This document shows, in pieces, positions 32,037 to 44,602 of a stretch of 44,825 nt of DNA. Where the stretch lies: the sequence record NC_073087.1. One strand, 5' to 3'. Source of the DNA: Escherichia phage Gluttony_ev152. The notes below the pieces were generated by a model. That model did no database searches, was not told the DNA's origin, and saw only the letters and a list, made by a program, of their open reading frames with translations. Every line of letters begins with the position of its first letter. The stretch's first letter is position 1. The position numbers were made by a program, and so were the translations under genes.

Positions 32037-34679
32037 ATGGCAGATCAGGCAGCAGGCATCACGCTAAAGGCTGATGTTGCACAAATCAGAACGGCAAATA
32101 CTGTGCTGGACTCCTTCGCACAGAAATCCGAGAACACAGAAAACAAGGTTAAGAAATTAAACGACACCCTCGGCAAATCCAAAAAGGTGACGAGTGACGC
32201 CGCGGGCGGAATGGAAAAGCTGGCAAACGAATCGCAGCGCGCCGCCGATGGCATGACGAAACAGGAGCGACTCGCCAACAGGTTAGGCATGTCGACTAAA
32301 AACCTGGGCTTTGCCTCGCGTAACGCCGCATTCCAGCTACAGGATATTGCGGTAACGCTTGAGATGGGGATGCCGGTTCACCGCGTCATGCTTCAGCAGT
32401 TACCGCAGCTAACTGGGGCGTTCGGTGGACTGGGTAACACGCTGCGTTATGTTGCGGGCTTCCTCGGCCCAGTAGGGATCGGCCTCGCCGCCGTAACGGC
32501 AACGTTAGGCGTGGGCGTGGCAATTACGTCCCGCGCAGAGAACCAGGTCGCCGCGCTTAACAAGACGCTGGCGCTGTCAGGTAACATTTCCGGCCTCACT
32601 GCAAACCAGATCCTGGTGTTATCCGAGAACGCCGAGCGCATGGGCGGATCATTCCGCAAGACGCGTGACACAATCCAGGCGCTGGCGGCGGCGGGTGTGA
32701 AAGCGGGTGGTGACTTCGGCGCATTGGCTAAGGTAGTTAATGACTTTGCGAAGGTGTCCAGCCAGCCGATCGAGGATGTGGTAGCGGCGGTGGCGAAGCT
32801 GTCAACCGACCCCGTTGGCGGACTGCGTGCGCTGGCGGATAAGTATCACGTCGTAAACGAAGCGCAGATCCAGCAGGTGCAGTCACTAGTGACGGCTGGT
32901 CGCGAAACCGAAGCGGTGGCGCTGGCTAACAAAACAGCCGCAGCGTCGTTTACCACTATGACCAATGAGATCAAGTCCAACATGGGTACGCTTGAGCGGT
33001 CGATGAACGTCGTTACATCGGCAGCTAAATCTATGTGGGATGCCATCCTGGATGTCGGGCGCGCGCAGTCCTCGAATGAGTCAGAGATGAAAGCGCGTGA
33101 ATCATTGCAGCGACTGACCACGGCTTACTATGCCGAGATGAAAGCGGTAAACGCTGCCGGTGGGGTGATGACCGAAGCGCAGAAAGCGCGTATTAACATG
33201 CTTTACAGCGAACTGGTAGCCCAGGAAAAAGTAGTGGCGTCGCTCACCCTGCGCAACCGTGCAGAGCGAGACAACGCAAGTGCCGCTGACGAAGCAGCAA
33301 AGGCGAACGAAGAGGCAAACCGCACCGCCCGCGACCGCGCCGCGTTCGAGAAGGAGTACGCAACCAACGCGAAGAGGCGCGCCGACGAGATCGCCCGCCT
33401 CAATTTGCTTAATAAGCGCGGCGTTATTGATGAGAAAGAACTAGCCGAGGCGGTTAAGCAGGTCAACGAGCGTTACAAAGACCCGGCACCGAAGAAGGCC
33501 GCCGCTGTTCGAGTCGATGCCGGGCTGAAAATGCTGGAGGTCGCACGGAGCGAACTGGCACAGCTTCGAGAATCAGGCAAGCAGATCGAGGCCAACTCTT
33601 CGACGCAGACCAGAACGCAACGCGCGCAAGCGGCCCTTAACAAGCTGATTGCCGACAACGAGCAGTTAATCGCTGCGAGCAAAGAAAGGGCGCTGACGGC
33701 AGCAGAGAAGCAGCAATTAGTCGAGTTCGGGCGCGTGAAGGAAGTCCGCGAGCAGATCGTCGAAGAAGCCAAATTGCTGGACGCGAAAGAGAAGCAGGTC
33801 AAGGCGCACGCGCAGATCGACGCCTTCGTTAAGAACCAGAACGCCGAGCTAAAAGCCACCGCGGCGGGCTATGCGCTTTCCACTCGCGAAGCGGCTAACC
33901 TGCGCGAAGAATTGCAGCTAATTGACCGCCTTAAGCGGGTGGGCGCTAGTGATACCGATATTGATCTGGCGGTGTCTAAACTGCGCGAAGTGCAGGAAGC
34001 ACAGACCGGTGCTAACGCCTCACTATGGGATGGATTCAGCCGTGGGCTTAAGGATAGCGTGGATGAAATGGGTAACGGCTATACGCAGATGGCGTCACTC
34101 ACAAAATTCACGTTCGGCGCTATGCAGGACACGATGAACGAGTTTTTCGAGACTGGCAAGCTGAACGCAAAGGATATGGTTAAGTCCATCCTGAGCGAAT
34201 TAATCAAGCTGGCTACCTCGCAGGCGTTCAAGTCCATCGTTAGCGCTTTCGGTGGCGACGGCGGCAAAAACGGATTGTTCGGCGCTATCTTCTCCGGCCT
34301 CACTAAGAATGCGGACGGCGGAGCGTACTCAGGGGGCAATCTCGCGGCCTATTCAGGGAAAGTGGTAAGCCAGCCTACCTTTTTCAGTTATGGCGTCCAG
34401 GCGTTCGCTAAGGGCGCAGGATTGATGGGCGAGGCTGGTCCTGAGGCCATCATGCCACTGAAGCGCGGGCCGGACGGGAAACTGGGCGTTGCCGCGTCTG
34501 GCGCAGGCGGAGGTATGGTCGTGACGACTAACGTTTACACGGGGACCGGTAAAACGGATACCAGTGTCAGCGGGCCGGACCCCCGTACTGCGCAGGCGTT
34601 CGGCAAGCAAATCACCGAGGCGGTGAAGGCCGAGATCGTGAAGGCGACGAAACCGGGTGGTGTACTTTACAAACGATGA
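32037..34679 (+). CDS. tail tape measure protein
   Basis: 880 aa, long alpha-helical Ala/Gln/Lys-rich central region, Gly-rich C-terminal part; canonical position. Confidence 0.85.
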   Translation: MADQAAGITLKADVAQIRTANTVLDSFAQKSENTENKVKKLNDTLGKSKKVTSDAAGGMEKLANESQRAADGMTKQERLANRLGMSTKNLGFASRNAAFQLQDIAVTLEMGMPVHRVMLQQLPQLTGAFGGLGNTLRYVAGFLGPVGIGLAAVTATLGVGVAITSRAENQVAALNKTLALSGNISGLTANQILVLSENAERMGGSFRKTRDTIQALAAAGVKAGGDFGALAKVVNDFAKVSSQPIEDVVAAVAKLSTDPVGGLRALADKYHVVNEAQIQQVQSLVTAGRETEAVALANKTAAASFTTMTNEIKSNMGTLERSMNVVTSAAKSMWDAILDVGRAQSSNESEMKARESLQRLTTAYYAEMKAVNAAGGVMTEAQKARINMLYSELVAQEKVVASLTLRNRAERDNASAADEAAKANEEANRTARDRAAFEKEYATNAKRRADEIARLNLLNKRGVIDEKELAEAVKQVNERYKDPAPKKAAAVRVDAGLKMLEVARSELAQLRESGKQIEANSSTQTRTQRAQAALNKLIADNEQLIAASKERALTAAEKQQLVEFGRVKEVREQIVEEAKLLDAKEKQVKAHAQIDAFVKNQNAELKATAAGYALSTREAANLREELQLIDRLKRVGASDTDIDLAVSKLREVQEAQTGANASLWDGFSRGLKDSVDEMGNGYTQMASLTKFTFGAMQDTMNEFFETGKLNAKDMVKSILSELIKLATSQAFKSIVSAFGGDGGKNGLFGAIFSGLTKNADGGAYSGGNLAAYSGKVVSQPTFFSYGVQAFAKGAGLMGEAGPEAIMPLKRGPDGKLGVAASGAGGGMVVTTNVYTGTGKTDTSVSGPDPRTAQAFGKQITEAVKAEIVKATKPGGVLYKR

Positions 34680-34685
34680 TAAAAT

Positions 34686-34716
34686 GGCCCTCACATCCAT
34701 CGTGGGGGCTTTTTTA
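34686..34716 (+). terminator. putative intrinsic terminator
   Basis: CCCTCAC-loop-GTGGGGG followed by TTTTTT directly after tape measure stop. Confidence 0.5.
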
Positions 34717-35315
34717 TGTCACAAGGTACAATCACTTTAACTAAGGGTAGTAAGACCGTTACAGGAGCGGGGACGGCGTTCCTTAGCGAGATCGGGAAGG
34801 TACTCGTATTCGCCCGCATCGACGGCAACGACTACACCGGCAAAATTGCGGCGTTCAACTCGAACACGGTCATTACACTGAAAGATAACTGGGCTGGCCC
34901 GACGAAATCCGGTGCGGCATATGAGCTAATCGAAGCACACGACCCGCGATCAAACGAATGGCCTTATTACTGGCACATGCAATTGCAGGGCGGTGGCGAC
35001 GTGCAGTTGGCTTTCCGGTCCGAGGAATTGCAATTCGGTAATGGCTACGGGCAGAACATCGCGGACGGCCCGAACGCCGAAACGAAACAATTCCCCGTGC
35101 AATTCGTCGGGCTAACTACTGATAAGTGGTGCGACCCCAAACTGGTTTATAACTTCCTTCGCGGGCACTTCGTCAAGCCGTTTGTCGTCACCGCGCCGGA
35201 TGGTGAAACAGGTTTATTCGTGGTCGAGCGTTCGAGCTTGTCGTACACGGACAACGGGCACTACACGGCAACGGTATCCGCCACCCTTAAGACTGCTATT
35301 GGATTCGTAAGATGA
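34716..35315 (+). CDS. minor tail protein (gpM-like C-terminal half, N-terminal extension)
   Basis: C-terminal FG-GYGQ ... FLRGH ... PDGETG resembles lambda gpM; N-terminal 25 aa share about 11/22 identities with the N-terminus of tail fiber ORF 42191. Confidence 0.6.
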   Translation: MSQGTITLTKGSKTVTGAGTAFLSEIGKVLVFARIDGNDYTGKIAAFNSNTVITLKDNWAGPTKSGAAYELIEAHDPRSNEWPYYWHMQLQGGGDVQLAFRSEELQFGNGYGQNIADGPNAETKQFPVQFVGLTTDKWCDPKLVYNFLRGHFVKPFVVTAPDGETGLFVVERSSLSYTDNGHYTATVSATLKTAIGFVR

Positions 35316-36100
35316 ATAAACTATATCGCGAGGCGACACGCTTCGACCCATCGGGCCGCGTTCGCCTGATTCACATTGACGCTCAGGACGTGGAACCTGG
35401 AGACGGCGCGATCGGAGCGGGGCATCACTATTTTCACTACTGCTTTATTCCGCACACTGCGGAGGATATTGCTGCCGCTGGGGGTGACGAGGATAAGCTG
35501 AAGCCAAAATCCATCTTCTTCGGCGGGCAGGAGTTCGAATTCTGGCCCTTCGATCTGTCTGGCCTTAACTTCTCCACATCGACGGCAGCAGAACCGCAAC
35601 TAACAATCGTCGATATTGGCGGCATAATAACCCGGCTGTCGCTGAACCACGACCAGCTACTTGGCGCGAAGGTTGAGATCATTGATACGTTCGCGAAGTT
35701 CCTGGACAACGGGACAGATCCAGACCCGACGCAGAAACGAGTTCAGGAGTATTACATCGACTCGCAGGTCGGGCGCAATCCGGGCAAGCAAATTACCTTC
35801 GCACTATCCTCGCCTGCGGATATGGAAGGGCAGGTCGTTCCCCGTCGCCAAATCATGAATATGTGCGAATGGGCGCTCAACGGGAAGTACGCCAGCGGGG
35901 ACGGTTGCACCTGGAACCTTGCGAAGCCCGGTATAAAGTATTACGACGAGCGAGGTAATGAAGTCATTGCGATGAATATGGACCGATGCGGCGGCTGTTT
36001 GTCCGACTGTTATCTTCGATTTGGGCAAGGGCTTGCGGACCCGAAAGCGGCGGTGCTGGACTTCGGCGGCTTTCCTGGGTCCAGATTAATTAAGGGGTAG
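35312..36100 (+). CDS. minor tail protein L
   Basis: C-terminal CGGCLSDC ... FGGF parallels the Cys cluster and FGGF motif at the C-terminus of lambda gpL. Confidence 0.75.
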   Translation: MNKLYREATRFDPSGRVRLIHIDAQDVEPGDGAIGAGHHYFHYCFIPHTAEDIAAAGGDEDKLKPKSIFFGGQEFEFWPFDLSGLNFSTSTAAEPQLTIVDIGGIITRLSLNHDQLLGAKVEIIDTFAKFLDNGTDPDPTQKRVQEYYIDSQVGRNPGKQITFALSSPADMEGQVVPRRQIMNMCEWALNGKYASGDGCTWNLAKPGIKYYDERGNEVIAMNMDRCGGCLSDCYLRFGQGLADPKAAVLDFGGFPGSRLIKG

Positions 36101-36102
36101 CC

Positions 36103-36843
36103 ATGTTAACGAAAAAGGTTAAAAGCGATATCGCCGCGCACGTTGCGGCATGTCTGCCGGAAGAAGCCTGTGGGTTGGTAGTCATGGTGGGTCGCAAGCA
36201 AGTATTCGTACCATGTCAGAACGTATTCGAAGACCCGACCGGCGTGCGTTCACGCAAAGACGCGTTTACGATTAGTGATATGGCCTGGATGGATGCCGAG
36301 GATATGGGCGACGTCGTGCGCGTAGTCCACTCGCATCCGGGCCAGCGAGAGCTTACCCCCTCACTGGGCGACGTTAACGGATGCAACGGCAGCGGCGTAG
36401 TCTGGACCATCACTAACGAATATGGCGACTTTATCGAGATCGACCCCGAAGACCCTCCGCTGGTGGGGCGTCGATTTGTTCTCGGAATTACGGATTGTTA
36501 CGGCCTCGTCATGGACTGGCACAAAAAGCAGGGTGTAAACCTGCCAGACTTCCGCGTGCCGTATAACTGGTGGGAGACAGGCGAAAATCTGTATATGGAT
36601 AATTGGTACGGCGCGGGCTTCAGGGAGTGTGAGGAAAATACTCCGGGGGCAATGGTCATCATGCAGATTAGCGCGCCAGTGCCTAACCACGCTGGGATAT
36701 TCCTTCCGGGCAACCAACTACTACACCATATCTACGGCAGCCTGTCGAGCGTGATCCCCTTCCGGGCAGGATTTTTCCGCGACAATGTGGTTAAATGGGT
36801 CCGGCATAAAGACCTACCGGGGAATATCACAGAATGGCAATGA
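36103..36843 (+). CDS. tail assembly protein K (JAMM/MPN + NlpC/P60 domains)
   Basis: HSHP (JAMM-type metal site) in N-terminal half and DCYGLV ... H (NlpC/P60 Cys-His) in C-terminal half, as in lambda gpK. Confidence 0.75.
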   Translation: MLTKKVKSDIAAHVAACLPEEACGLVVMVGRKQVFVPCQNVFEDPTGVRSRKDAFTISDMAWMDAEDMGDVVRVVHSHPGQRELTPSLGDVNGCNGSGVVWTITNEYGDFIEIDPEDPPLVGRRFVLGITDCYGLVMDWHKKQGVNLPDFRVPYNWWETGENLYMDNWYGAGFRECEENTPGAMVIMQISAPVPNHAGIFLPGNQLLHHIYGSLSSVIPFRAGFFRDNVVKWVRHKDLPGNITEWQ

Positions 36844-37451
36844 CAACGTTTAAATTGTACGGCGTCTTAGGACGTCGATTCGGTAAAGTGCATAAGCTGG
36901 ACTGCTTCACACCGGGCGAAGGAATCACCGGCTTGTGTGTGAAGTTGCCAGGGTTACAAGACTTTTTAATGTCAGCCCACCTGGACAACATGATGTTCAA
37001 AGTGCGCAAGGGCAATCACACCATGACCGGCTACGATGAGCTGGGCGAGTTCCACGGCGACCGCGTAGTGACCATCGCGCCGGTTATGACGGGCGCAAAA
37101 AGCGGACTGGGCCAATTGCTGGCGGGTGTAGCGATCGTGGTGGCGTCGTTCTATACCGGAGGGCTTGCAACTGCCGCTTTCGGAGCTTCAGCGGCTACCG
37201 CGGCCTCTATCGGCGCAGCGACGTTTTCGTTCGGGATGTCGATGGCGCTGGGTGGCGTTATGCAATTGTTATCACCGCAACCGAAAGGATTGCAGACACG
37301 GCAGGACGTGGATAACAAGGCGTCGTACGCGTTCGGCGGGCCGGTGAACACAACCGCGCAAGGCACGGCACTTGGTGTATTATGGGGCGAGCGTGAGATC
37401 GGCGGCGCTATTATTTCCGCCGGAATCGTAACCGAGGACTTGAACGAATGA
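36834..37451 (+). CDS. tail assembly protein I
   Basis: 205 aa with Gly/Ala-rich hydrophobic C-terminal part, overlapping both neighbours; position between K and J. Confidence 0.65.
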   Translation: MAMTTFKLYGVLGRRFGKVHKLDCFTPGEGITGLCVKLPGLQDFLMSAHLDNMMFKVRKGNHTMTGYDELGEFHGDRVVTIAPVMTGAKSGLGQLLAGVAIVVASFYTGGLATAAFGASAATAASIGAATFSFGMSMALGGVMQLLSPQPKGLQTRQDVDNKASYAFGGPVNTTAQGTALGVLWGEREIGGAIISAGIVTEDLNE

Positions 37452-40400
37452 CGATTATCTACGACGTCACGGGCCATAAAGGCGGCGGCGGAAAACAGCA
37501 CACCCCACAGGAGACGCCAGACAGCCTGCATTCGCTGGCTAAAATCCGCATCTTGCTCGCACTGGGCGAAGGGGAGTTCGAAAGTATTACGAGCGCCAGC
37601 GAATTACGGCAGCGCGTCTACCTGGACGGAACACCGATCCAGAACGCCGACCTGTCGGAAAACTTCCCCGGCGCGCGCGTGGAGTTCCGCCCGGGCACAC
37701 AGCACCAGGATGTGATCCACGGATTTTCAGCGGTGGAAAGTGAGCAATCTGTCGGCGTAAAACTGGAAAACGGCACGCCGTGGGTGCGCCAGGTTAACGA
37801 CACCAGTCTTGACGCCGTGCGCATTCGAATCGGCATTCCGGCCCTGTACACTAACGAAGATAATGGCGACCTGGTGGGCGGGCGCATCGACTATAAGATC
37901 GTTGTGTATACGGATAACGCCGACCCGCGTGAGTTCAGATTCGCCGCCGTTGGTAAAACAATGTCGCTATATGAGCGCGACCACCGCATCGAATTACCGC
38001 CGAACGTGAATACCGGCTGGCGAGTGGAGGTGCACCGCATAACGGCAGACTCCACATCGGCGAAAGTGGTTAATGATATCCAGGTGCAATCCATCACTGA
38101 GATTATCGACGCCCGCCTGCGTAACCCGCTAACCGCGCTGTTGTTTGTGGAGTTCGACGCCAAAGCGTTCCAGAACATCCCGCGCGTGTCCATCAAGTGC
38201 AAAGGCCGCAAAGTTCTAATACCGAACAACTACGACCCGATTAATCATACCTATTCCGGGGACTGGGACGGCACGTTTAAACGCGCATGGACGGATAACC
38301 CCGCGTGGCACTGGTACGATATTTGTATTACTGAGCGCTTCGGCCTCGGTCGGCGTATCAAACCGCAAATGTTAAACCGGTACGCGCTCTACCAGATTGC
38401 GCAGCGCTGCGATCAGTTGGTCAGCGACGGCAACGGTGGTCGAGAAATCCGCTTTAAGAATGATATGTACATTCAGTCACAGACGGATGCTTGGACCGTG
38501 CTTAAGGATTTAGCCGCTATCTTTGCCGGTATGACCTGGTGGGGAAATCAGATGTTGAATATCGTCAGTGACCAGCCGGTCGCAGCGGTATCGCACACCA
38601 TCACCAACGCTTCGGTCATTGATGGTCGATTCGACTACGCGTCCGGTAGCCAGAAAACTCGGTATTCCACATTCGCGGTAGCATACGGCAACACGAAGAA
38701 CCACTATGAAGATGCCATTGCTACGGGGCAGCGTGTCGAACTGGTACGCCGCCATAAGATTAACCGTCTGGATATAACGGCGATCGGCTGTACGCGTGAG
38801 TCAGAAGCGCAACGACGTGGGCACTGGGCGCTAATCTCCAACCAGCTTGACCAGCAAGTTAGCTTTAAGGTTGGCATGGAGGGACTTTTCTTTATTCCGG
38901 GTAGCGTAGTCGCGATCGCCGATACAAACATTTCTGGCGGCTTCGAGACACGCGGCGGTCGCCTGTTGCCGGACCCTGGCACGCGTACCGTGCTTAACAC
39001 GGACAGCGAAATCACGTTCCGCCCAGGTGATAAATTCCTGGTACGCACCGATAGCGGTAATGTGGAGACTCGCGAGATCGCCAGCGTCAACGGCAACAAG
39101 GTTACGCTAAAAACCGCACTGGACGCCGACCCGATTCCTGATCAGCCGTTTTGCGTCGATGGCAACGATATCCAGTTGCAGAAGTTCCGCATCACCGACC
39201 TGGAATATGACGACTCTACCAGCACTTTTTCAGTGCGCGGGATCGAGTACAACGATAGCAAATATGATGCCGTTGATAATGGCGCTCGCCTTGATCCGGG
39301 CATCTTTACTCAAGTGCCGGACGGCGTAATGAAGGGGCCGGAGTCCGTGACCATAACCCCGTCGCAGATTTCATCGCAAGGCCAGCTAATCACCAACGTG
39401 GATATTGTTTTCCCGCCGGTTAAGGACGCCGTGGTGTATGAAATCCAGTGGCGACGTACCAGCTTGCAGAATATGGAAATCCAGTGGGGTAACGACTGGG
39501 TGAACATCCCCCGCACGGCATCGAACGGCGCGCACATCCCTAACGTGTTCTCCGGTAACTACCAGGCACGCGTCCGCGCAATCGGTATGGGCGAGATTTC
39601 ATCCCCGTGGGTGTCGTCTGCCATCACGCCGATAGAAGGTCGTCTCGGCGGGCTTAACGCGCCTATCATCACCAACGCGATTTCGGGCCTCCACCAAATT
39701 TTGTGGAAGTGGAACCACAACAACGCCGCGACGGATATTTCGTACACCGAGCTTGAAGTGCGCAAGACCGGTGAAACGGAGTGGAAATTTCTTACCAACG
39801 TCCCATATCCGGGGGCGGAGTATGCGCAAACGTCACTGGAGTTCGGGATCTATCAGCAGTTGCGCGCCCGTGTAGCGGATAAAATCGGCAACCTGTCGGA
39901 CTGGTCGGCCCCGTTTGAAGGGCAGGTGAGTGACAAAGTTGACGAATACATGAAGGGGCTTGATGACGAGTTCTTGACTTCCGAGGACGGTAAACGCTTC
40001 CAGGAAGCGATCGACACCATGCCGCAAGGTATCTATGAGTCTATGCTTACGGACGCCCAGCAGCTATTCAATGCCCGCGCCGAGTATAAAGGGATTTATG
40101 CGGAAATCACGGTGGCGTATAACGTGGCGGCGGACGCGCATAAAGCCGTAGCGCAACTGGAAACGTTGATCGGCACGCGCCTTGATGACGCTGAAGCATC
40201 AATCCACACGTTGCAGACTGCGCAAAGCACACATGAACAAGCGTTCGCCCAGTACCAGCAAACTGTTGCCGCTAAGTTTTCGGGACAGGAAGCCGCCATC
40301 CAGCAGGTACAAACGGCAACGGCGGACGTGGCTGGCGCACTGGCGGAGTATAAGACCCAGGTCGCGGCGCAGTTCGGACAGCAGTCCGCAGCTATCGAGC

Positions 40401-40894
40401 AGAAGATGACGTCTTCGTTTAACCATGCTGGTGGCAGCGCCACGTACAGTCTTAAGGCTGGCGTGACGTATAACGGGACTTACTATGACGCCGGTATGCA
40501 GCTTTCAGTTGTGACGTCTGGCAACGCAGTTAAATCGCGTATTGCGTTCAAAGCCGACCAGTTCTATATCATGCACCCATCTAATGGGTCGCTTTCGTCC
40601 GCGTTTATCGTTGACGGCGGGCAGGTGTATATTGACACGGCACGCATCAAGGACGCGTCAATCAACTTTGCGCAGATCACGGACACGCTGCAATCAAATA
40701 ACTACGCTTCAGGGTCACGCGGCTGGCGTATCCAGAAAGGCGGCGCTGCGGAGTTCAACGAAGTAACGGTCCGCGGCAACCTGTACGCCACATCCGGTAA
40801 CTTCGGATTCTCCGGTGGGACCGTGACGATTGACAAGACAGGAGTAAACGTGCCGTTACCTGGCGGGGGAAGGGTTAAAGTCGGGACGTGGTAA
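37448..40894 (+). CDS. central tail fiber / host specificity protein J
   Basis: 1148 aa; N-terminus HKGGGGKQHTPQETPDSLHS resembles lambda J N-terminus (GKGSSKGHTPREAKDNL); follows M-L-K-I order. Confidence 0.85.
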   Translation: MTIIYDVTGHKGGGGKQHTPQETPDSLHSLAKIRILLALGEGEFESITSASELRQRVYLDGTPIQNADLSENFPGARVEFRPGTQHQDVIHGFSAVESEQSVGVKLENGTPWVRQVNDTSLDAVRIRIGIPALYTNEDNGDLVGGRIDYKIVVYTDNADPREFRFAAVGKTMSLYERDHRIELPPNVNTGWRVEVHRITADSTSAKVVNDIQVQSITEIIDARLRNPLTALLFVEFDAKAFQNIPRVSIKCKGRKVLIPNNYDPINHTYSGDWDGTFKRAWTDNPAWHWYDICITERFGLGRRIKPQMLNRYALYQIAQRCDQLVSDGNGGREIRFKNDMYIQSQTDAWTVLKDLAAIFAGMTWWGNQMLNIVSDQPVAAVSHTITNASVIDGRFDYASGSQKTRYSTFAVAYGNTKNHYEDAIATGQRVELVRRHKINRLDITAIGCTRESEAQRRGHWALISNQLDQQVSFKVGMEGLFFIPGSVVAIADTNISGGFETRGGRLLPDPGTRTVLNTDSEITFRPGDKFLVRTDSGNVETREIASVNGNKVTLKTALDADPIPDQPFCVDGNDIQLQKFRITDLEYDDSTSTFSVRGIEYNDSKYDAVDNGARLDPGIFTQVPDGVMKGPESVTITPSQISSQGQLITNVDIVFPPVKDAVVYEIQWRRTSLQNMEIQWGNDWVNIPRTASNGAHIPNVFSGNYQARVRAIGMGEISSPWVSSAITPIEGRLGGLNAPIITNAISGLHQILWKWNHNNAATDISYTELEVRKTGETEWKFLTNVPYPGAEYAQTSLEFGIYQQLRARVADKIGNLSDWSAPFEGQVSDKVDEYMKGLDDEFLTSEDGKRFQEAIDTMPQGIYESMLTDAQQLFNARAEYKGIYAEITVAYNVAADAHKAVAQLETLIGTRLDDAEASIHTLQTAQSTHEQAFAQYQQTVAAKFSGQEAAIQQVQTATADVAGALAEYKTQVAAQFGQQSAAIEQKMTSSFNHAGGSATYSLKAGVTYNGTYYDAGMQLSVVTSGNAVKSRIAFKADQFYIMHPSNGSLSSAFIVDGGQVYIDTARIKDASINFAQITDTLQSNNYASGSRGWRIQKGGAAEFNEVTVRGNLYATSGNFGFSGGTVTIDKTGVNVPLPGGGRVKVGTW

Positions 40895-40899
40895 ATGCG

Positions 40900-40924
40900 A
40901 TGGGGCCAGATGGCCCCATTTTCA
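40900..40924 (+). terminator. putative terminator between convergent genes
   Basis: GGGGCCAGATGGCCCC followed by ATTTTC; lies between J (+) and minus-strand ORF end. Confidence 0.45.
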
Positions 40925-41887
40925 ATACATATTCGGGATGACGAGTAGCGGTGTTGGTACTGCAATATTTTTACTTGGCATCTGGAATTGCTGCCGTGAG
41001 TAGTTGCCGATGACGCGGTTTTTAGCGACGCGCACATTATTACCCGCCATGCGTATGCCGTTCATGCGGACGTGGTTATAGCCACCGTTGTTCTGAATCA
41101 GTGCGCCGGTGTATGAAAGCTGGATCAGGCTGTTTCCAATATTCTGGTCGCCCGTTCCGATGTTAATAGTGCGGTCATATACGAACGGCTTGTTCACCGT
41201 CGAGAACGTAACCTGATTCTGGTTATTCGTCATGGTGATTCCGGCCCCCGGAGTGGGTGGTGTGTTGTTGAATATCACCAAATCCATGTCCACCGAAGCC
41301 GCCACATCGTCGATGCCTCCATAGGACGCGTTGCGGACGATAATACTGCCGCCATCGAAGCCTACTGATACGTTGCCATCATCCCATCGGGCGAACGGAA
41401 CACCGCCAACCGGCAAGGCCATACTACCGTTGACGCGCACGCGCTGTGCGTATCGGCAGGTCATTAGCTTAGACACGTTGGATATGGCGGTGAAGTCCGT
41501 CGAGTTAGCCACCAGTAAACCTGCGTTGCGCGAACCAACCGGCAGCACTTCCATTATGACGCCCGCCCATTGTGGTAAACCAGAGTACGCGCCATACGCA
41601 TCCTCCCCGCGCAGGGTGATACCACTATTACCGTTGCGAGTAACCGACGTAACGTAAAACGGGTCGGGAATTACCAGGGTCTGGTCAAACACCTCAATCA
41701 CTTCTACCGGGCGAGTGAGCGCGACGATGACCTGCGACCCATCCGTAAGCGGGGTGTTAATGGTTAGCGTCTTGTTGGACTGTGCCCGCTGGTTAAAGCT
41801 GGTGCAGTATGACGGCGCGCGGAGTCCCGCGGTTATCTCCATGCGCGGCCTTCCGTCGTTATAGTCGATAAGTATTCCAGCGCCCAT
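40922..41887 (-). CDS. hypothetical Asn/Gly/Thr-rich protein (beta-helix-like)
   Basis: Reverse-oriented; starts right after the lipoprotein gene stop (ATG 41887 with GGGAG RBS, alternative GTG 41896); repeated N/G/T-rich segments; no signal peptide. Confidence 0.5.
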   Translation of the reverse strand: MGAGILIDYNDGRPRMEITAGLRAPSYCTSFNQRAQSNKTLTINTPLTDGSQVIVALTRPVEVIEVFDQTLVIPDPFYVTSVTRNGNSGITLRGEDAYGAYSGLPQWAGVIMEVLPVGSRNAGLLVANSTDFTAISNVSKLMTCRYAQRVRVNGSMALPVGGVPFARWDDGNVSVGFDGGSIIVRNASYGGIDDVAASVDMDLVIFNNTPPTPGAGITMTNNQNQVTFSTVNKPFVYDRTINIGTGDQNIGNSLIQLSYTGALIQNNGGYNHVRMNGIRMAGNNVRVAKNRVIGNYSRQQFQMPSKNIAVPTPLLVIPNMY

Positions 41888-41889
41888 TA

Positions 41890-42111
41890 TTACCACTCCC
41901 GTGATTTAACTGATACTGTGCCTGAGAAATTGCCGTCGCTATCTGAAGACAGCCCAGTGAATCGCATGTCTACATCTCCTGCCGGTACTTTTTGCCCGTC
42001 AACGTAGCGCAACATGCAGCTACCGTAAGCAACCGTAACGCAATCGCCATTGTTGCGTTCTACGGCGCAACCGGACAAAAGAACCGCACAAATCATAATT
42101 AAAGTTTTCAT
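41890..42111 (-). CDS. small outer-membrane lipoprotein (Cor/Llp-like superinfection-exclusion candidate)
   Basis: 73 aa from internal ATG with AGGGGA RBS; signal peptide MKTLIMICAVLLSGC with lipobox LSGC; reverse-oriented between J and tail fiber genes. Confidence 0.55.
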   Translation of the reverse strand: MKTLIMICAVLLSGCAVERNNGDCVTVAYGSCMLRYVDGQKVPAGDVDMRFTGLSSDSDGNFSGTVSVKSREW

Positions 42112-42190
42112 GGTATCATCCCCTATATTTGGTTGAGTTTTAGTATTACACCGCTCAACCAGGATTGCAACCAATTACGAGGATTTAGCT

Positions 42191-44602
42191 ATGGCAGCGG
42201 GTACGCTATCCGTAACGAACAATAGCAAGGCGGTAGTAGGGGTCGGCACCACGTTTACCGCGTTTAAAGCTGGCGACTTCTTAACGTTGGTGGTAGGACA
42301 AGTCCCATACACCGTGGCAATCGCGTCCATTGAAAGCGCAACCGCGCTTACGCTGGTGCTGCCGTTCGACGGCCCAACGGCAACCGGCCTTGCGTGGGAC
42401 GGCGTTAAGCGCGATACCATGTCACTGGCAACGATGGGCGTTACCGTACAGGCACAGAAAGCGTTGCGATTGATGATCGCAGATGAAAACAACTGGCGCG
42501 CTATCTTCGGCGAAGAAGAAGAAATCTCGGTCACGCTACCGAACGGTCAAGTGGTGCAGGGTATGTCGTGGGGCTACCTGTCAAAACTGCTTAAAGACGT
42601 AGATCCTGTTGAATTGCAGGCTATCGCGGACCAGACCATCACGGCTAAAAACCAGGCGCAAGGATTCCGTAACGAGGCGGAAGGCTTCAAGAACACCGCG
42701 AATACCGCGAAAGATGCCGCAGTAGCTGCGAAGACAGCGGCGGAGACAGCTAAGTCGCAGGCCGTAACCGCTAAAGCGAAGACAGCGGCGGAGACAGCTA
42801 AGTCGCAGGCCGTAACCGCTAAAGACCAGGCCAAAGGATTTCGCGACGAGGCTGAAGGCTTCGCCAACAGCGCGGACGCGTCAAAGAAAGTGCCGTATGC
42901 TGGCGTAACATTACCGGCACCGACTGGAGTAAGGGATATGCTCAAGCGGTTGCGCGATTCGGTTAAGGGCGGCTTCTGGCGCGTCGATGATATTGCGCAG
43001 TTTCCATCTGGCGAGATGACCCCTTTCAGATACGGACCTGGCGTATGTGGCGGCGCGGGGGATACATTCTTTGCAATCAACGTTGACTGGCAAACCTCGC
43101 GCGTTAAAGTTTTCTCGGGAAACAACAACGCGATCAACGGTGCGTCGGGAAGTGTTAGCGCTATCGAACTGGCTAAGCTGGGGGCTAACGGGGACGTGGC
43201 GATCGGGGACGGCGGGACCGGTGCATCGAACGACCAGGGCGCGAGAAAAAACCTTCAGGCAATGCACGAGCGACAGGCATCGTTGGATACTGAAGATCTT
43301 AACGTCCTTCAGGGTGATAAGGCTGGGTTTTATTATCAGTCCCTGTCGGCTAACGCCACCCCCGAACGTAACTATCCTATTAACCAGGCGGGTTGTTTAC
43401 TGGTGCAAAGATCCGGTGCTAACGATCCGAAAAGCTGCATACAAACGTACACCTCATACCTTAACGGTCGGCGCTGGATTCGATGGCTGAGCAACGCGAC
43501 TACTGGCACTTGGTCCCAATGGTACGAATTATATAACGCAGGGTCGTCGCCGACTTTTTCTGGAGTAATTACTGGATCTGCGGTGCGCGCTTCCGTTGAC
43601 GGAAAGATCATAACTATTAAACCTGGCGTCAATGATGTAGTTATTCACAACTCGGCATCTAATAAATTTTTGCAATTAAAGGACGATGGCGGTCTTTCGT
43701 ATGACAACAAGCTGATCGCGTATAACGGCCTTGCCGCCAGTGGCACATTTGCTATGACCGTCCCTAGCATTAAAGTTACAACAGCCAATGGCGGATTTCG
43801 TATCGACGGAACAACGTCGACAAACAACCAGCCACTTCACGTAACAGGCTACAACTCCGCAGGCACGCGTCTTTGGTTTTTAGGGAAGGACACCGGGACG
43901 AACGCGCTATTCCTGAACGATGTTACATCGTCTAAGGTTGAGCTGATCACAGACGGCGTTGTGCTTGGTACAAAGAATTTTGCGGGCAAGGCATACGTCC
44001 AGGCCGCAAGTTTAGAGATCGACCGACCGAGCGGCAAGTATTTCAAAATGCAGAACGACGGCACCTCGTCGCACCCTGCAACCTTCAAATTATGGGGTAA
44101 CGGGTCTGAGAGGGCGTCGGTTATTGAGTGTGGTTTTGATAACGGCCCTGGGTGGGTGTTTTACGCGCAATATAACAGCAACGGCACGCGCCAGATGAAC
44201 GTTAACGGTACGGTAAACTGCACGACGGTAAACCAGTCGTCTGACCGCGAGTTGAAGGATAACATCAAGCCGATCGAGAACGCTCGCGCGGGCCTTGCTA
44301 AGATGGGCGGTTATACCTACACCCTGAAAAAAGACGGTATGCCGTACGCCGGGGTGATTGCACAGGAAGTAATGGACGTTGTGCCGGAAGCGGTGAGCAC
44401 GTTCGAAGACTACGAACACCTTGCGGGGCCAACGCAAGACGGCGAGGAACTGGTAGGGCGTCAGCGCTTCTTCCAGGTGGACTACGGCGCTATTGCGGCG
44501 TACGCGGTGCAAGTGTGTAAAGAACAGGAAGAGGAACTGGTGTCATTACGCAGCGAACTGGAGGAATTAAAAGCTGCCGTAGCGGCACTGACTAAAGCAT
44601 AA
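42191..44602 (+). CDS. tail fiber protein with C-terminal intramolecular chaperone (peptidase S74-like) domain
   Basis: 803 aa; C-terminus SDRELKDNIKPIENA ... GGYTYTLKKDG ... GVIAQEV ... QVDYGAIAAY ... coiled-coil matches the autoproteolytic chaperone domain of endosialidase and T5 L-shaped fiber type; internal 48-nt tandem duplication. Confidence 0.8.
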   Translation: MAAGTLSVTNNSKAVVGVGTTFTAFKAGDFLTLVVGQVPYTVAIASIESATALTLVLPFDGPTATGLAWDGVKRDTMSLATMGVTVQAQKALRLMIADENNWRAIFGEEEEISVTLPNGQVVQGMSWGYLSKLLKDVDPVELQAIADQTITAKNQAQGFRNEAEGFKNTANTAKDAAVAAKTAAETAKSQAVTAKAKTAAETAKSQAVTAKDQAKGFRDEAEGFANSADASKKVPYAGVTLPAPTGVRDMLKRLRDSVKGGFWRVDDIAQFPSGEMTPFRYGPGVCGGAGDTFFAINVDWQTSRVKVFSGNNNAINGASGSVSAIELAKLGANGDVAIGDGGTGASNDQGARKNLQAMHERQASLDTEDLNVLQGDKAGFYYQSLSANATPERNYPINQAGCLLVQRSGANDPKSCIQTYTSYLNGRRWIRWLSNATTGTWSQWYELYNAGSSPTFSGVITGSAVRASVDGKIITIKPGVNDVVIHNSASNKFLQLKDDGGLSYDNKLIAYNGLAASGTFAMTVPSIKVTTANGGFRIDGTTSTNNQPLHVTGYNSAGTRLWFLGKDTGTNALFLNDVTSSKVELITDGVVLGTKNFAGKAYVQAASLEIDRPSGKYFKMQNDGTSSHPATFKLWGNGSERASVIECGFDNGPGWVFYAQYNSNGTRQMNVNGTVNCTTVNQSSDRELKDNIKPIENARAGLAKMGGYTYTLKKDGMPYAGVIAQEVMDVVPEAVSTFEDYEHLAGPTQDGEELVGRQRFFQVDYGAIAAYAVQVCKEQEEELVSLRSELEELKAAVAALTKA
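42730..42825 (+). repeat. 48-nt tandem duplication inside tail fiber gene
   Basis: GAAGACAGCGGCGGAGACAGCTAAGTCGCAGGCCGTAACCGCTAAAG occurs twice back to back, encoding KTAAETAKSQAVTAK twice. Confidence 0.7.

Follow-up and report, generated by a model that had tools for sequence, protein, structure and literature searches.

The anchoring of side fibres through small N-terminal domains is well known from phage lambda, phage T5, and the F-type pyocins, and distal tail proteins (DTPs) with add-on domains are equally well known, as exemplified by T5 pb9 and the 'evolved' Dits of phages of Gram-positive bacteria. Here, we analyze a DTP in which these two themes meet. It is encoded in a stretch of 44,825 nucleotides from Escherichia phage Gluttony_ev152 (NC_073087.1; this whole stretch is termed the window in the following), and its N-terminal beta-barrel and the N-terminal part of the lateral tail fibre from the same window are homologous domains. 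The closest described domains are those at residues 2–76 of the F-type pyocin side fibres PA0643/PA0646 and in PyoF13, which attach the trimeric fibres and were characterized in three independent cryo-electron microscopy studies in 2026 (PMC13455828, PMC12874032, bioRxiv 2026.02.24.707460). Two protomers of each of three trimers build a pseudo-sixfold ring, and the stem helices enter grooves of the shaft (PMC13455828, PMC12874032, bioRxiv 2026.02.24.707460), with the stem helix contributing half of the docking interface (PMC13455828). In the study on the F2 pyocin, the domain was termed an OB domain and likened to the decorating domain of T5 pb9 (PMC13455828). The collar of Ur-lambda, which surrounds the gpV/gpM junction with 12 members, is built from an N-terminal fibre domain of another kind that contacts K2 and W6 of gpM (PMC12617516). 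The T5 collar is built by a separate protein, p132 (PMC13455828, PMC12617516), and the collars of lambda and T5 are both 12-mers (PMC12617516, PMC13455828).

The DTP barrel shares with the F-pyocin side fibres (PyoF13/PA0643/PA0646, PDB 25ve) a small OB-like barrel and the motif G-[ST]-[IVL]-x-[LV]-T...G-x-[GA]-T-x-F...Y...S-x-T, and a family profile of 29 sequences matches the F2-pyocin side fibre 25ve_A at residues 5–76 with an E-value of 5e-9. The tips are also alike, as the pyocin tip is lambda-like and has homologous DTP, hub, and J proteins. However, the pyocin domain heads a trimeric fibre, is followed by a stem helix, and uses the coiled-coil shaft of the central fibre, and not the DTP, as its dock, and the pyocin DTP is short (113 residues), whereas the DTP of the window comprises 199 residues including the barrel. 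The collars of Ur-lambda Stf, T5 p132, and DT57C LtfC resemble the DTP barrel in that they consist of small beta domains at the tube/DTP junction that link side fibres to the tail, and the lambda Stf collar touches the N-terminal residues of gpM, which is the very point at which the DTP barrel is fused. They differ in belonging to another domain family, and in being made of 12 copies that come from fibres or from a dedicated protein, instead of six fused copies. In line with this, the lambda Stf-type domain was matched neither by the DTP nor by the fibre in the Pfam search, and no lambda Stf chain was among the PDB sequence matches. The construction of the window DTP, with a tube-fold ring domain and an exposed OB-like barrel in one polypeptide, recalls T5 pb9 (4jmq, 5mf2), but there is no sequence homology, as pb9 was absent from the phmmer and profile matches in the PDB and shows 14% identity in a structural alignment. 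The barrel of pb9 is said, with reference to work of Flayhan et al. in 2014, to lie away from the N-terminus. The resemblance to pb9 is one of the manner of construction, outside family membership. Fibres that carry the same domain family at their extreme N-terminus, with 38–49% identity to the DTP barrel (tblastn), are N15 gp25, ES18 gp33, and those of HK225, Salmonella phage S135, and Drexlerviridae. These phages have lambda-like tips and J proteins with a common acidic motif at the start of the shaft but, unlike the phage of the window, short DTPs (about 115 residues in S135 and N15) and the barrel on the fibre only. The actual orthologue of the window DTP is gp20 of phage Bas18 (23gd_B, phrog_9922), which has the same architecture and the hub protein gp21 and the J-like gp24 as neighbours.

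A fibre-type barrel on the distal tail protein

The original prediction described a gpM-like minor tail protein that is about 90 residues longer than lambda gpM and whose first 22 residues resemble the start of the tail fibre with about 11 identities. Both statements hold. PF05939 (Phage_min_tail, the lambda gpM family) matches residues 86–187 of the protein with 44.2 bits at a gathering threshold of 39, covering positions 5–102 of the 108 positions of the model, and lambda gpM has 109 residues as compared to 199. Exactly 11 of the first 22 residues are identical to the fibre. This similarity is a true homology that extends far beyond a 22-residue motif: it runs essentially ungapped over about 72 residues and past the G/T/S-rich start, and BLASTP with composition-based statistics aligned the N-domain of the DTP with the fibre start at 26 identities in 74 positions (55% positives, E 2e-7). 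Tail-fibre PHROG profiles match residues 1–72 of the DTP with E-values from 2e-17 to 2e-11, and a hidden Markov model (HMM) of the family matches the N-domain with 5e-32. The signature of the domain, M-x-x-G-T-[IL]-x-[LV]-T-x-x-S-x-x-V-x-G-x-G-T-x-F ... Y ... S-x-T ... G-P-x-x-x-G-x-A, emerged from an essentially gapless alignment of 29 sequences, in which the DTP copy keeps all 17 invariant or near-invariant columns. According to the family HMM, the window holds two copies of the domain only, one on the DTP and one on the fibre.

Given the abundance of G, T, and S in the first 22 residues and the inconsistent start annotations of the gene in GenBank, one might suspect a chance resemblance, or an annotation or frameshift artefact. 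The shuffle tests, which addressed the low-complexity concern that had been raised in the original prediction, place the similarity beyond chance: residues 1–75 scored 100 as compared to a mean of 26.5 (standard deviation 4.9), residues 1–22 alone 61 as compared to 19.4, and residues 23–75 alone 57 as compared to 20.4, and in none of the three cases did any of 5000 shuffles reach the observed score. Because BLASTP, the shuffles including those of residues 23–75 alone, and the PHROG profiles agree, we interpret the similarity as homology and not as low-complexity noise. The profile E-values, which range from 1e-17 to 1e-32, and the gapless alignment add to this, the open reading frame (ORF) is continuous, and a 199-residue chain has been deposited in the PDB. 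A chance similarity or artefact is thereby refuted, and we consider it next to impossible. The start codons annotated in GenBank records give proteins of 199, 212, or 218 residues (region 34683–34716), and some of these starts create an overlap with the tape measure gene at its end. The 199-residue form is supported by the PDB chain and by the GGGGG-N7-ATG context, a Shine-Dalgarno-like GGGGG run 7 nt upstream of the ATG.

The PDB chain in question, 23gd_B, is named 'Distal tail protein gp20'. It matches gp20 of the BASEL phage Oekolampad (Bas18) with 100% identity and agrees with the window DTP in 189 of 199 residues, with seven of the 10 substitutions lying in the N-domain. The entry also holds a 'Hub protein gp21' and a 'J-like tail tip protein gp24', and its two DTP chains as compared to single hub and J chains are consistent with a C3 asymmetric unit. 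From the molecule name and the chain counts, the DTP would be expected to form a ring of six subunits that connects the tail tube to the trimeric hub. In the literature, we found no publication that describes 23gd or the Bas18 virion structure; the one structural paper on Oekolampad that we found is about the complex of the receptor-binding protein with LptDE and contains no mention of gp20. In addition, T1 gp37 (9l9p_H) matches the C-terminal part of the DTP with an E-value of 2.5e-12, and lambda gpM (8iyk_M) is matched weakly by profile (E 0.26). The gene position is that of the gpM family, directly after the tape measure gene and ahead of the gpL-, gpK-, gpI-, and J-like genes. On sequence grounds, we regard the identity as a distal tail protein and the homology of its N-domain to the fibre N-terminus as nearly certain, and the two-domain architecture, a gpM tube fold plus a captured side-fibre anchor domain, is firm.

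AlphaFold2 modeling of the N-domain alone, based on the 29-sequence alignment, yielded a six-stranded OB-like beta-barrel with a predicted local distance difference test score (pLDDT) of 84.6. Structural matches in BFVD were fibre N-termini of Drexlerviridae and relatives with TM-scores of 0.7–0.8, and a Foldseek search of the PDB (to April 2026) gave only weak matches (E > 0.04), with 23gd and 25ve not being among the matches listed. The joint between the barrel and the tube fold is about 10 residues long (EAHDPRSNEW). Pfam has no model that matches residues 1–85 of the DTP or residues 1–680 of the fibre, and a word-indexed homologue search returned no matches for the 82-residue N-domain of the DTP alone and six close ones for the fibre N-terminus.

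Origin, divergence, and exchange of the barrel

Using a profile of the two window copies, we searched 1.84 billion proteins and obtained 3823 cluster representatives at E ≤ 0.001, of which we inspected the best 150 for their architecture. In nearly all of these 150, the barrel is located at the extreme N-terminus of proteins of 250–800 residues. Example members end in Peptidase_S74 or Phage_tail_C_2, and are tail fibres for this reason. Within INPHARED, the domain heads the fibres of N15 (gp25), ES18 (gp33), HK225, and of Salmonella, Cronobacter, Erwinia, and many Pseudomonas phages, and the search in other tail fibres that the original prediction had recommended thus revealed the barrel at the N-terminus of hundreds of fibre families. 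The fusion to the DTP has a much narrower distribution: every DTP-linked copy in INPHARED belongs to a Dhillonvirus, the long DTP with the barrel is present in all 156 cultured Dhillonviruses, and among the best 150 representatives the barrel and the gpM domain occur together in Dhillonvirus proteins only. A 'minor tail protein' of S135 was considered as a second DTP fusion and rejected, as this protein is a fibre that is encoded after J. As a separate observation, a barrel of about 65 residues occurs in 3–13 tandem copies in proteins of 600–2900 residues (P0011–P0014, P0020, P0037, P0052), some of which also have PKD domains. The contigs that encode them are long (up to 333 kb) and apparently cellular, and one of these proteins, from a metagenome-assembled genome of a Prochloraceae cyanobacterium, is named 'putative baseplate assembly protein'. 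Tandem arrays in such large cellular proteins indicate that the domain is generic and more widely used than for fibre N-termini.

The DTP copy is 30–35% identical to the resident fibre and 38–49% identical to some foreign fibres (tblastn, alignment). A recent intragenomic duplication of the 5' end of the fibre gene into the DTP gene was therefore rejected. The module exchange between fibre and tip proteins that the original prediction had proposed fits well to a mobile module that is found on many fibre families, to a DTP copy that is no nearer to the resident fibre, and to the mosaic cassette described below. Our comparisons support the view that the DTP barrel was captured from the N-terminus of a lateral fibre by domain shuffling or module exchange.

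Once on the DTP, the barrel has taken its own course. The ratio of non-synonymous to synonymous substitution rates (dN/dS) is mostly 0.1–0.3 in the N-domain of the DTP, up to 0.6 in the bov22_1 lineage, which indicates purifying selection. The tube fold of the DTP is under very strong purifying selection (dN/dS 0.02–0.07), and at non-synonymous sites the N-domain changes 5–10 times faster than the tube fold. The barrel, thus, appears to be an exposed domain that evolves faster than the tube fold and yet is constrained. For the fibre copy, dN/dS is 0.04–0.18. The DTP copy and the fibre copy show no co-variation; in bov15_1/bov22_1, for example, the DTP copy has diverged (dN 0.23), whereas the fibre copy is almost unchanged (dN 0.03). 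Several positions that are conserved in 81–96% of the fibres are substituted in the DTP (A3Q, T23L, G-D to K-V in the AGDF loop, G37D, W70Y, P74E). The AGDF loop, the W of the last strand, and the V-P exit are conserved in 85–96% of 26 fibres, and seven of seven DTP copies have K-V, Y, and E instead. The DTP copies also lack the stem helix, while the fold-defining residues are kept. What follows the barrel in the DTP is not a stem helix and a trimeric fibre but the linker and the gpM tube fold, and the carrier is presumably a hexameric ring protein; judged by its sequence, the DTP copy therefore belongs to the barrel domain family but not to the fibre protein family.

Relatives from metagenomes lack this domain on the DTP. 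Their DTPs have 122–125 residues and start at a WPYYW motif. One of them, L001, shares about 90% identity with the window to either side of the region, and L004 and L028 are more distant. Short DTPs of 123–125 residues without the barrel are present in L001–L003, L004, and L028, and the fibres of all these relatives carry the barrel N-domain and the stem, which in L001, L004, and L028 has the sequence (T/S)M(S/A)LATMGVT(V/T)QAQKA(L/M)R in common with the window. The fibre N-domains of the window and L001 differ by a dN of only 0.02. The exchange is sharply delimited, as blastn of the window with L001 gave 92% identity up to position 34718, the DTP start codon, 67% over 34959–35469, and 89% from 35495 onward. 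In place of the barrel-bearing DTP and a gpL-like protein of 262 residues, L001 (10004–11003) encodes a DTP of 123 residues and a gpL of 415 residues with an insert of about 150 residues. This insert belongs to no Pfam family and shows a weak match to the 'Megatron' protein of R4C (E 2e-4). As the cassette swaps a long DTP and plain gpL for a short DTP and an insert-bearing gpL, the DTP barrel and the gpL insert thus appear to be two peripheral add-ons that represent alternative states of one tail position.

The joint change of the DTP and the N-terminal part of gpL in this cassette suggests a mutual contact, and this leads to a structural explanation: the barrel might be a clamp that binds the last tube ring, the gpL hub, or a neighbouring DTP, and that stabilizes the tube-tip junction or orders its assembly, with no role towards host or fibre. 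The position of the barrel at the tube/DTP junction and the purifying selection would agree with this. However, relatives assemble near-identical tape measure, tube, and J proteins without the barrel, and a 5–10 times faster non-synonymous change than that of the tube fold is unusual for a core structural contact. We therefore consider a structural clamp improbable.

The barrel at the tail tip and the docking of the lateral fibre

Our preferred interpretation, which we hold with evenly balanced confidence, is that the DTP barrel is a built-in peripheral decoration of the tail tip rather than a fibre dock. The DTP would form the hexameric ring that ends the tail tube and is seated on the gpL/J hub, and each barrel would be attached through a linker of about 10 residues at the extreme N-terminal end of the tube fold (residues ~84–199). 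The N-terminus of lambda gpM aligns to residues ~84–88 of the window DTP, and because this gpM N-terminus lies outside and touches the collar in Ur-lambda, six barrels would be expected around the outside of the tube/DTP junction, at the position of the collar. There, the barrel may be an autonomous decoration that can be compared with the T5 pb9 OB-fold domain or the add-ons of 'evolved' Dits. It would touch the cell surface or adjacent tail proteins through weak accessory contacts, and would not serve as a dock for lateral fibres. We favour decoration over docking because the same fibre anchor is used in sister phages whose DTP has no barrel, because the two copies evolve independently, because the fibre features are lost in the DTP copy, and because a gpL add-on can take its place. 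Most likely, the DTP barrel is not required for the attachment of the lateral fibre.

Docking was one of two readings offered by the original prediction, which suggested that the shared module may mark a common docking site on the tail tip. In a concrete form of this reading, the six DTP barrels would alternate with six fibre barrels in a 12-membered hybrid collar at the tube/DTP junction that resembles the collars of lambda Stf or T5 p132, and the DTP copy would serve as the fibre dock by quasi-homotypic contacts, for example with three trimeric fibres that each engage two protomers, as in the F-pyocins. The domain family is indeed known to pack side by side in a pseudo-sixfold ring with two of three protomers per fibre (PMC13455828; bioRxiv 2026.02.24.707460), and the DTP is the canonical level of side-fibre attachment, with 12-mers as collars in lambda and T5 (PMC12617516). 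Furthermore, the tether of the barrel is at the place where gpM is in contact with the collar in lambda, the DTP copy has kept all fold-defining residues, and it is under purifying selection in all 156 cultured Dhillonviruses. Against this stand the persistence of the same fibre anchor in relatives with a barrel-less, short DTP, the lack of co-variation between the DTP and fibre copies, the loss in the DTP copy of fibre-specific conserved positions (AGDF, W...VP) and of the stem helix, and the fact that the Bas18 tip entry in the PDB has no fibre chain; a relative of the lateral fibre was found nowhere among the fibre chains in the PDB sequences that were searched, 23gd included. The idea of a common docking site is thus weakened and not supported, and a hybrid collar is possible but on the unlikely side. 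A more elaborate version, in which six hard-wired DTP barrels are joined by six barrels donated by fibres (three trimers with two protomers each, or two trimers), the collar of the short-DTP sisters is entirely fibre-borne, and a cassette swap changes the number or hold of the fibres, is distinctly doubtful.

Several points nevertheless weigh against decoration. No ligand or binding activity is known for the DTP barrel or for T5 pb9, and decoration or adhesion is the default reading. The closest characterized relatives are attachment domains that self-associate into rings, which makes docking the natural first guess. That 23gd lacks a fibre chain could simply be due to flexibility, to masking, or to a deposition elsewhere, and the lack of co-variation is weak evidence, as the interface residues are not defined. 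Finally, the N-domain has a pLDDT below 50 in the full-length AlphaFold2 model, which was based on an alignment of 11 sequences, and the placement of the domain is deduced from the linker and from the analogy to lambda.

If the DTP barrel is a decoration, the lateral fibre probably docks via its own barrel and stem helix, and the dock would be either the helical shaft of the J-like central fibre, as for the pyocin homologues, or directly the surface of the tube or DTP. The C-terminus of J is homologous to the central fibre of the F2 pyocin only from F2 residue 977 onward (E 2.5e-19), the pyocin docking site (953–956) lies in a stretch that has no counterpart in the J protein of Dhillonviruses, and the start of the Dhillonvirus J shaft aligned to no pyocin chain. 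As the pyocin site has no counterpart in J, a docking of the fibre on J stays an analogy and is not based on homology. An acidic motif, D-[DE]-Y-[ML]-x-G-[LF]-x-[DE]-x-[FL]-[LM]-x-x-E-D-G-[KE], followed by I-[DN]-T-x-[PI]-[EQ]-[GA], is located at the start of the shaft (J residues ~826–862, window positions ~39923–40033). It is present in the phage of the window, in L004, in L028, and in N15 gp21 (L029), and in a looser form in orf35 of S135 (L005), and all of these phages have a lateral fibre with the barrel. Although there is no alignment between the two sites, the analogy to the acidic kink of the F-pyocin central fibres makes the motif a candidate, and no more than that, for a fibre-docking site.

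Tail module and implications

The window covers nearly the entire genome of a Dhillonvirus, which is among the small E. coli siphophages of the HK578 type, and the tail region (34000–37500) is 94–96% identical on the nucleotide level to 156 phage records, including StarDew, SECphi4, welsh, and HK578. Records labelled with non-Escherichia hosts also match this region, for example that of Campylobacter phage A144 (MG065648.1, 94%) and those of Acinetobacter and Sodalis phages, and these are probably mislabelled or contaminant sequences. As judged by Pfam and ORF calls, the tail genes follow the lambda order, with the tape measure protein (TMP), the DTP, gpL, gpK, gpI, and J (Table 1). Pfam TMP_2 and Tape_meas_lam_C match the syntenic TMP genes of the relatives L001 and L004.

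Table 1. Features of the tail region in the window (aa, amino acids)
Feature	Position	Strand	Basis or remark
Tape measure protein (TMP), 880 aa	32037..34679	+	ORF; directly upstream of the DTP gene
Distal tail protein (DTP) gene, gp20-type, 199 aa, two domains	34716..35315	+	PF05939; phrog_9922 full-length, E 3e-141
N-terminal fibre-anchor-type beta-barrel domain, DTP aa 1-73	34716..34934	+	
Linker from barrel to first tube-fold residues, DTP aa 74-85, EAHDPRSNEWPY	34935..34970	+	Low pLDDT; conserved only within DTP copies
gpM-type tail-tube-fold domain, DTP aa 86-187 by Pfam, fold to aa 199	34971..35276	+	Pfam
Mosaic cassette, whole DTP gene and first ~60 gpL codons	34719..35494	+	blastn against L001
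gpL-like hub protein, 262 aa	35312..36100	+	PF05100; matches 23gd_C 'Hub protein gp21'
gpK-like JAB/NlpC protein	36103..36843	+	ORF and Pfam
gpI-like protein	36834..37451	+	ORF and Pfam
J-like central fibre/tail tip protein, 1148 aa, helical shaft ~aa 826-985	37448..40894	+	Pfam; matches 23gd_D and F2-pyocin central fibre
DUF6453 protein	40922..41896	-	Between J and fibre genes
Second small ORF	41890..42174	-	Between J and fibre genes
Lateral tail fibre, 803 aa	42191..44602	+	Peptidase_S74 at aa 684-735; fibre PHROGs
Fibre copy of the same beta-barrel domain, fibre aa 1-72	42191..42406	+	BLASTP, shuffles, alignment, family HMM

In the lateral fibre, the N-terminal anchor domain is followed by a stem helix, a coiled coil, and a tip that is T5-like and includes an intramolecular chaperone; the lateral fibres of Dhillonviruses have been described for BASEL phages (PMC11990801). 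The fibre gene of the window contains a perfect 48-bp tandem duplication at 42728–42824 (2.0 copies, 100% match), by which 16 codons (AKTAAETAKSQAVTAK) of the coiled-coil shaft are repeated, and which looks like a recent change of shaft length. The genes between J and the fibre are variable. In relatives, an ORF at this slot encodes a small lipoprotein (PF24052), in S135 the corresponding gene follows J on the same strand, and Teewinot and N15 have another gene pair in this place, which is annotated in N15 as outer membrane and membrane-associated proteins. A modeling study from 2025 proposed that the products of such genes are tip-bound receptor-binding proteins (PMC12309495).

Decorated DTPs are already known as a kind, the structure of an orthologue (23gd) has been deposited, and the phage genus is well sampled. 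Dhillonviruses are common and easily grown coliphages, and their members in the BASEL collection are used as models. What is unusual is that the add-on of the DTP and the anchor of the fibre belong to the same domain family in one virion, and that the barrel-bearing DTP behaves as an exchangeable cassette among otherwise near-identical phages. The analysis also gives a name to a large domain family, with its 3823 cluster representatives, that has no Pfam model. Should the barrel be no more than a decoration, it neatly illustrates how domains are shuffled among tail proteins. A role of the DTP copy in fibre attachment would amount to a novel mode of collar construction and would be of practical use for engineering the display of fibres. 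And if the cassette swap indeed alters the composition of a hybrid collar, it would constitute a simple genetic switch for fibre stoichiometry, in which a fibre domain has been 'domesticated' by the tail ring and templates its own partners.

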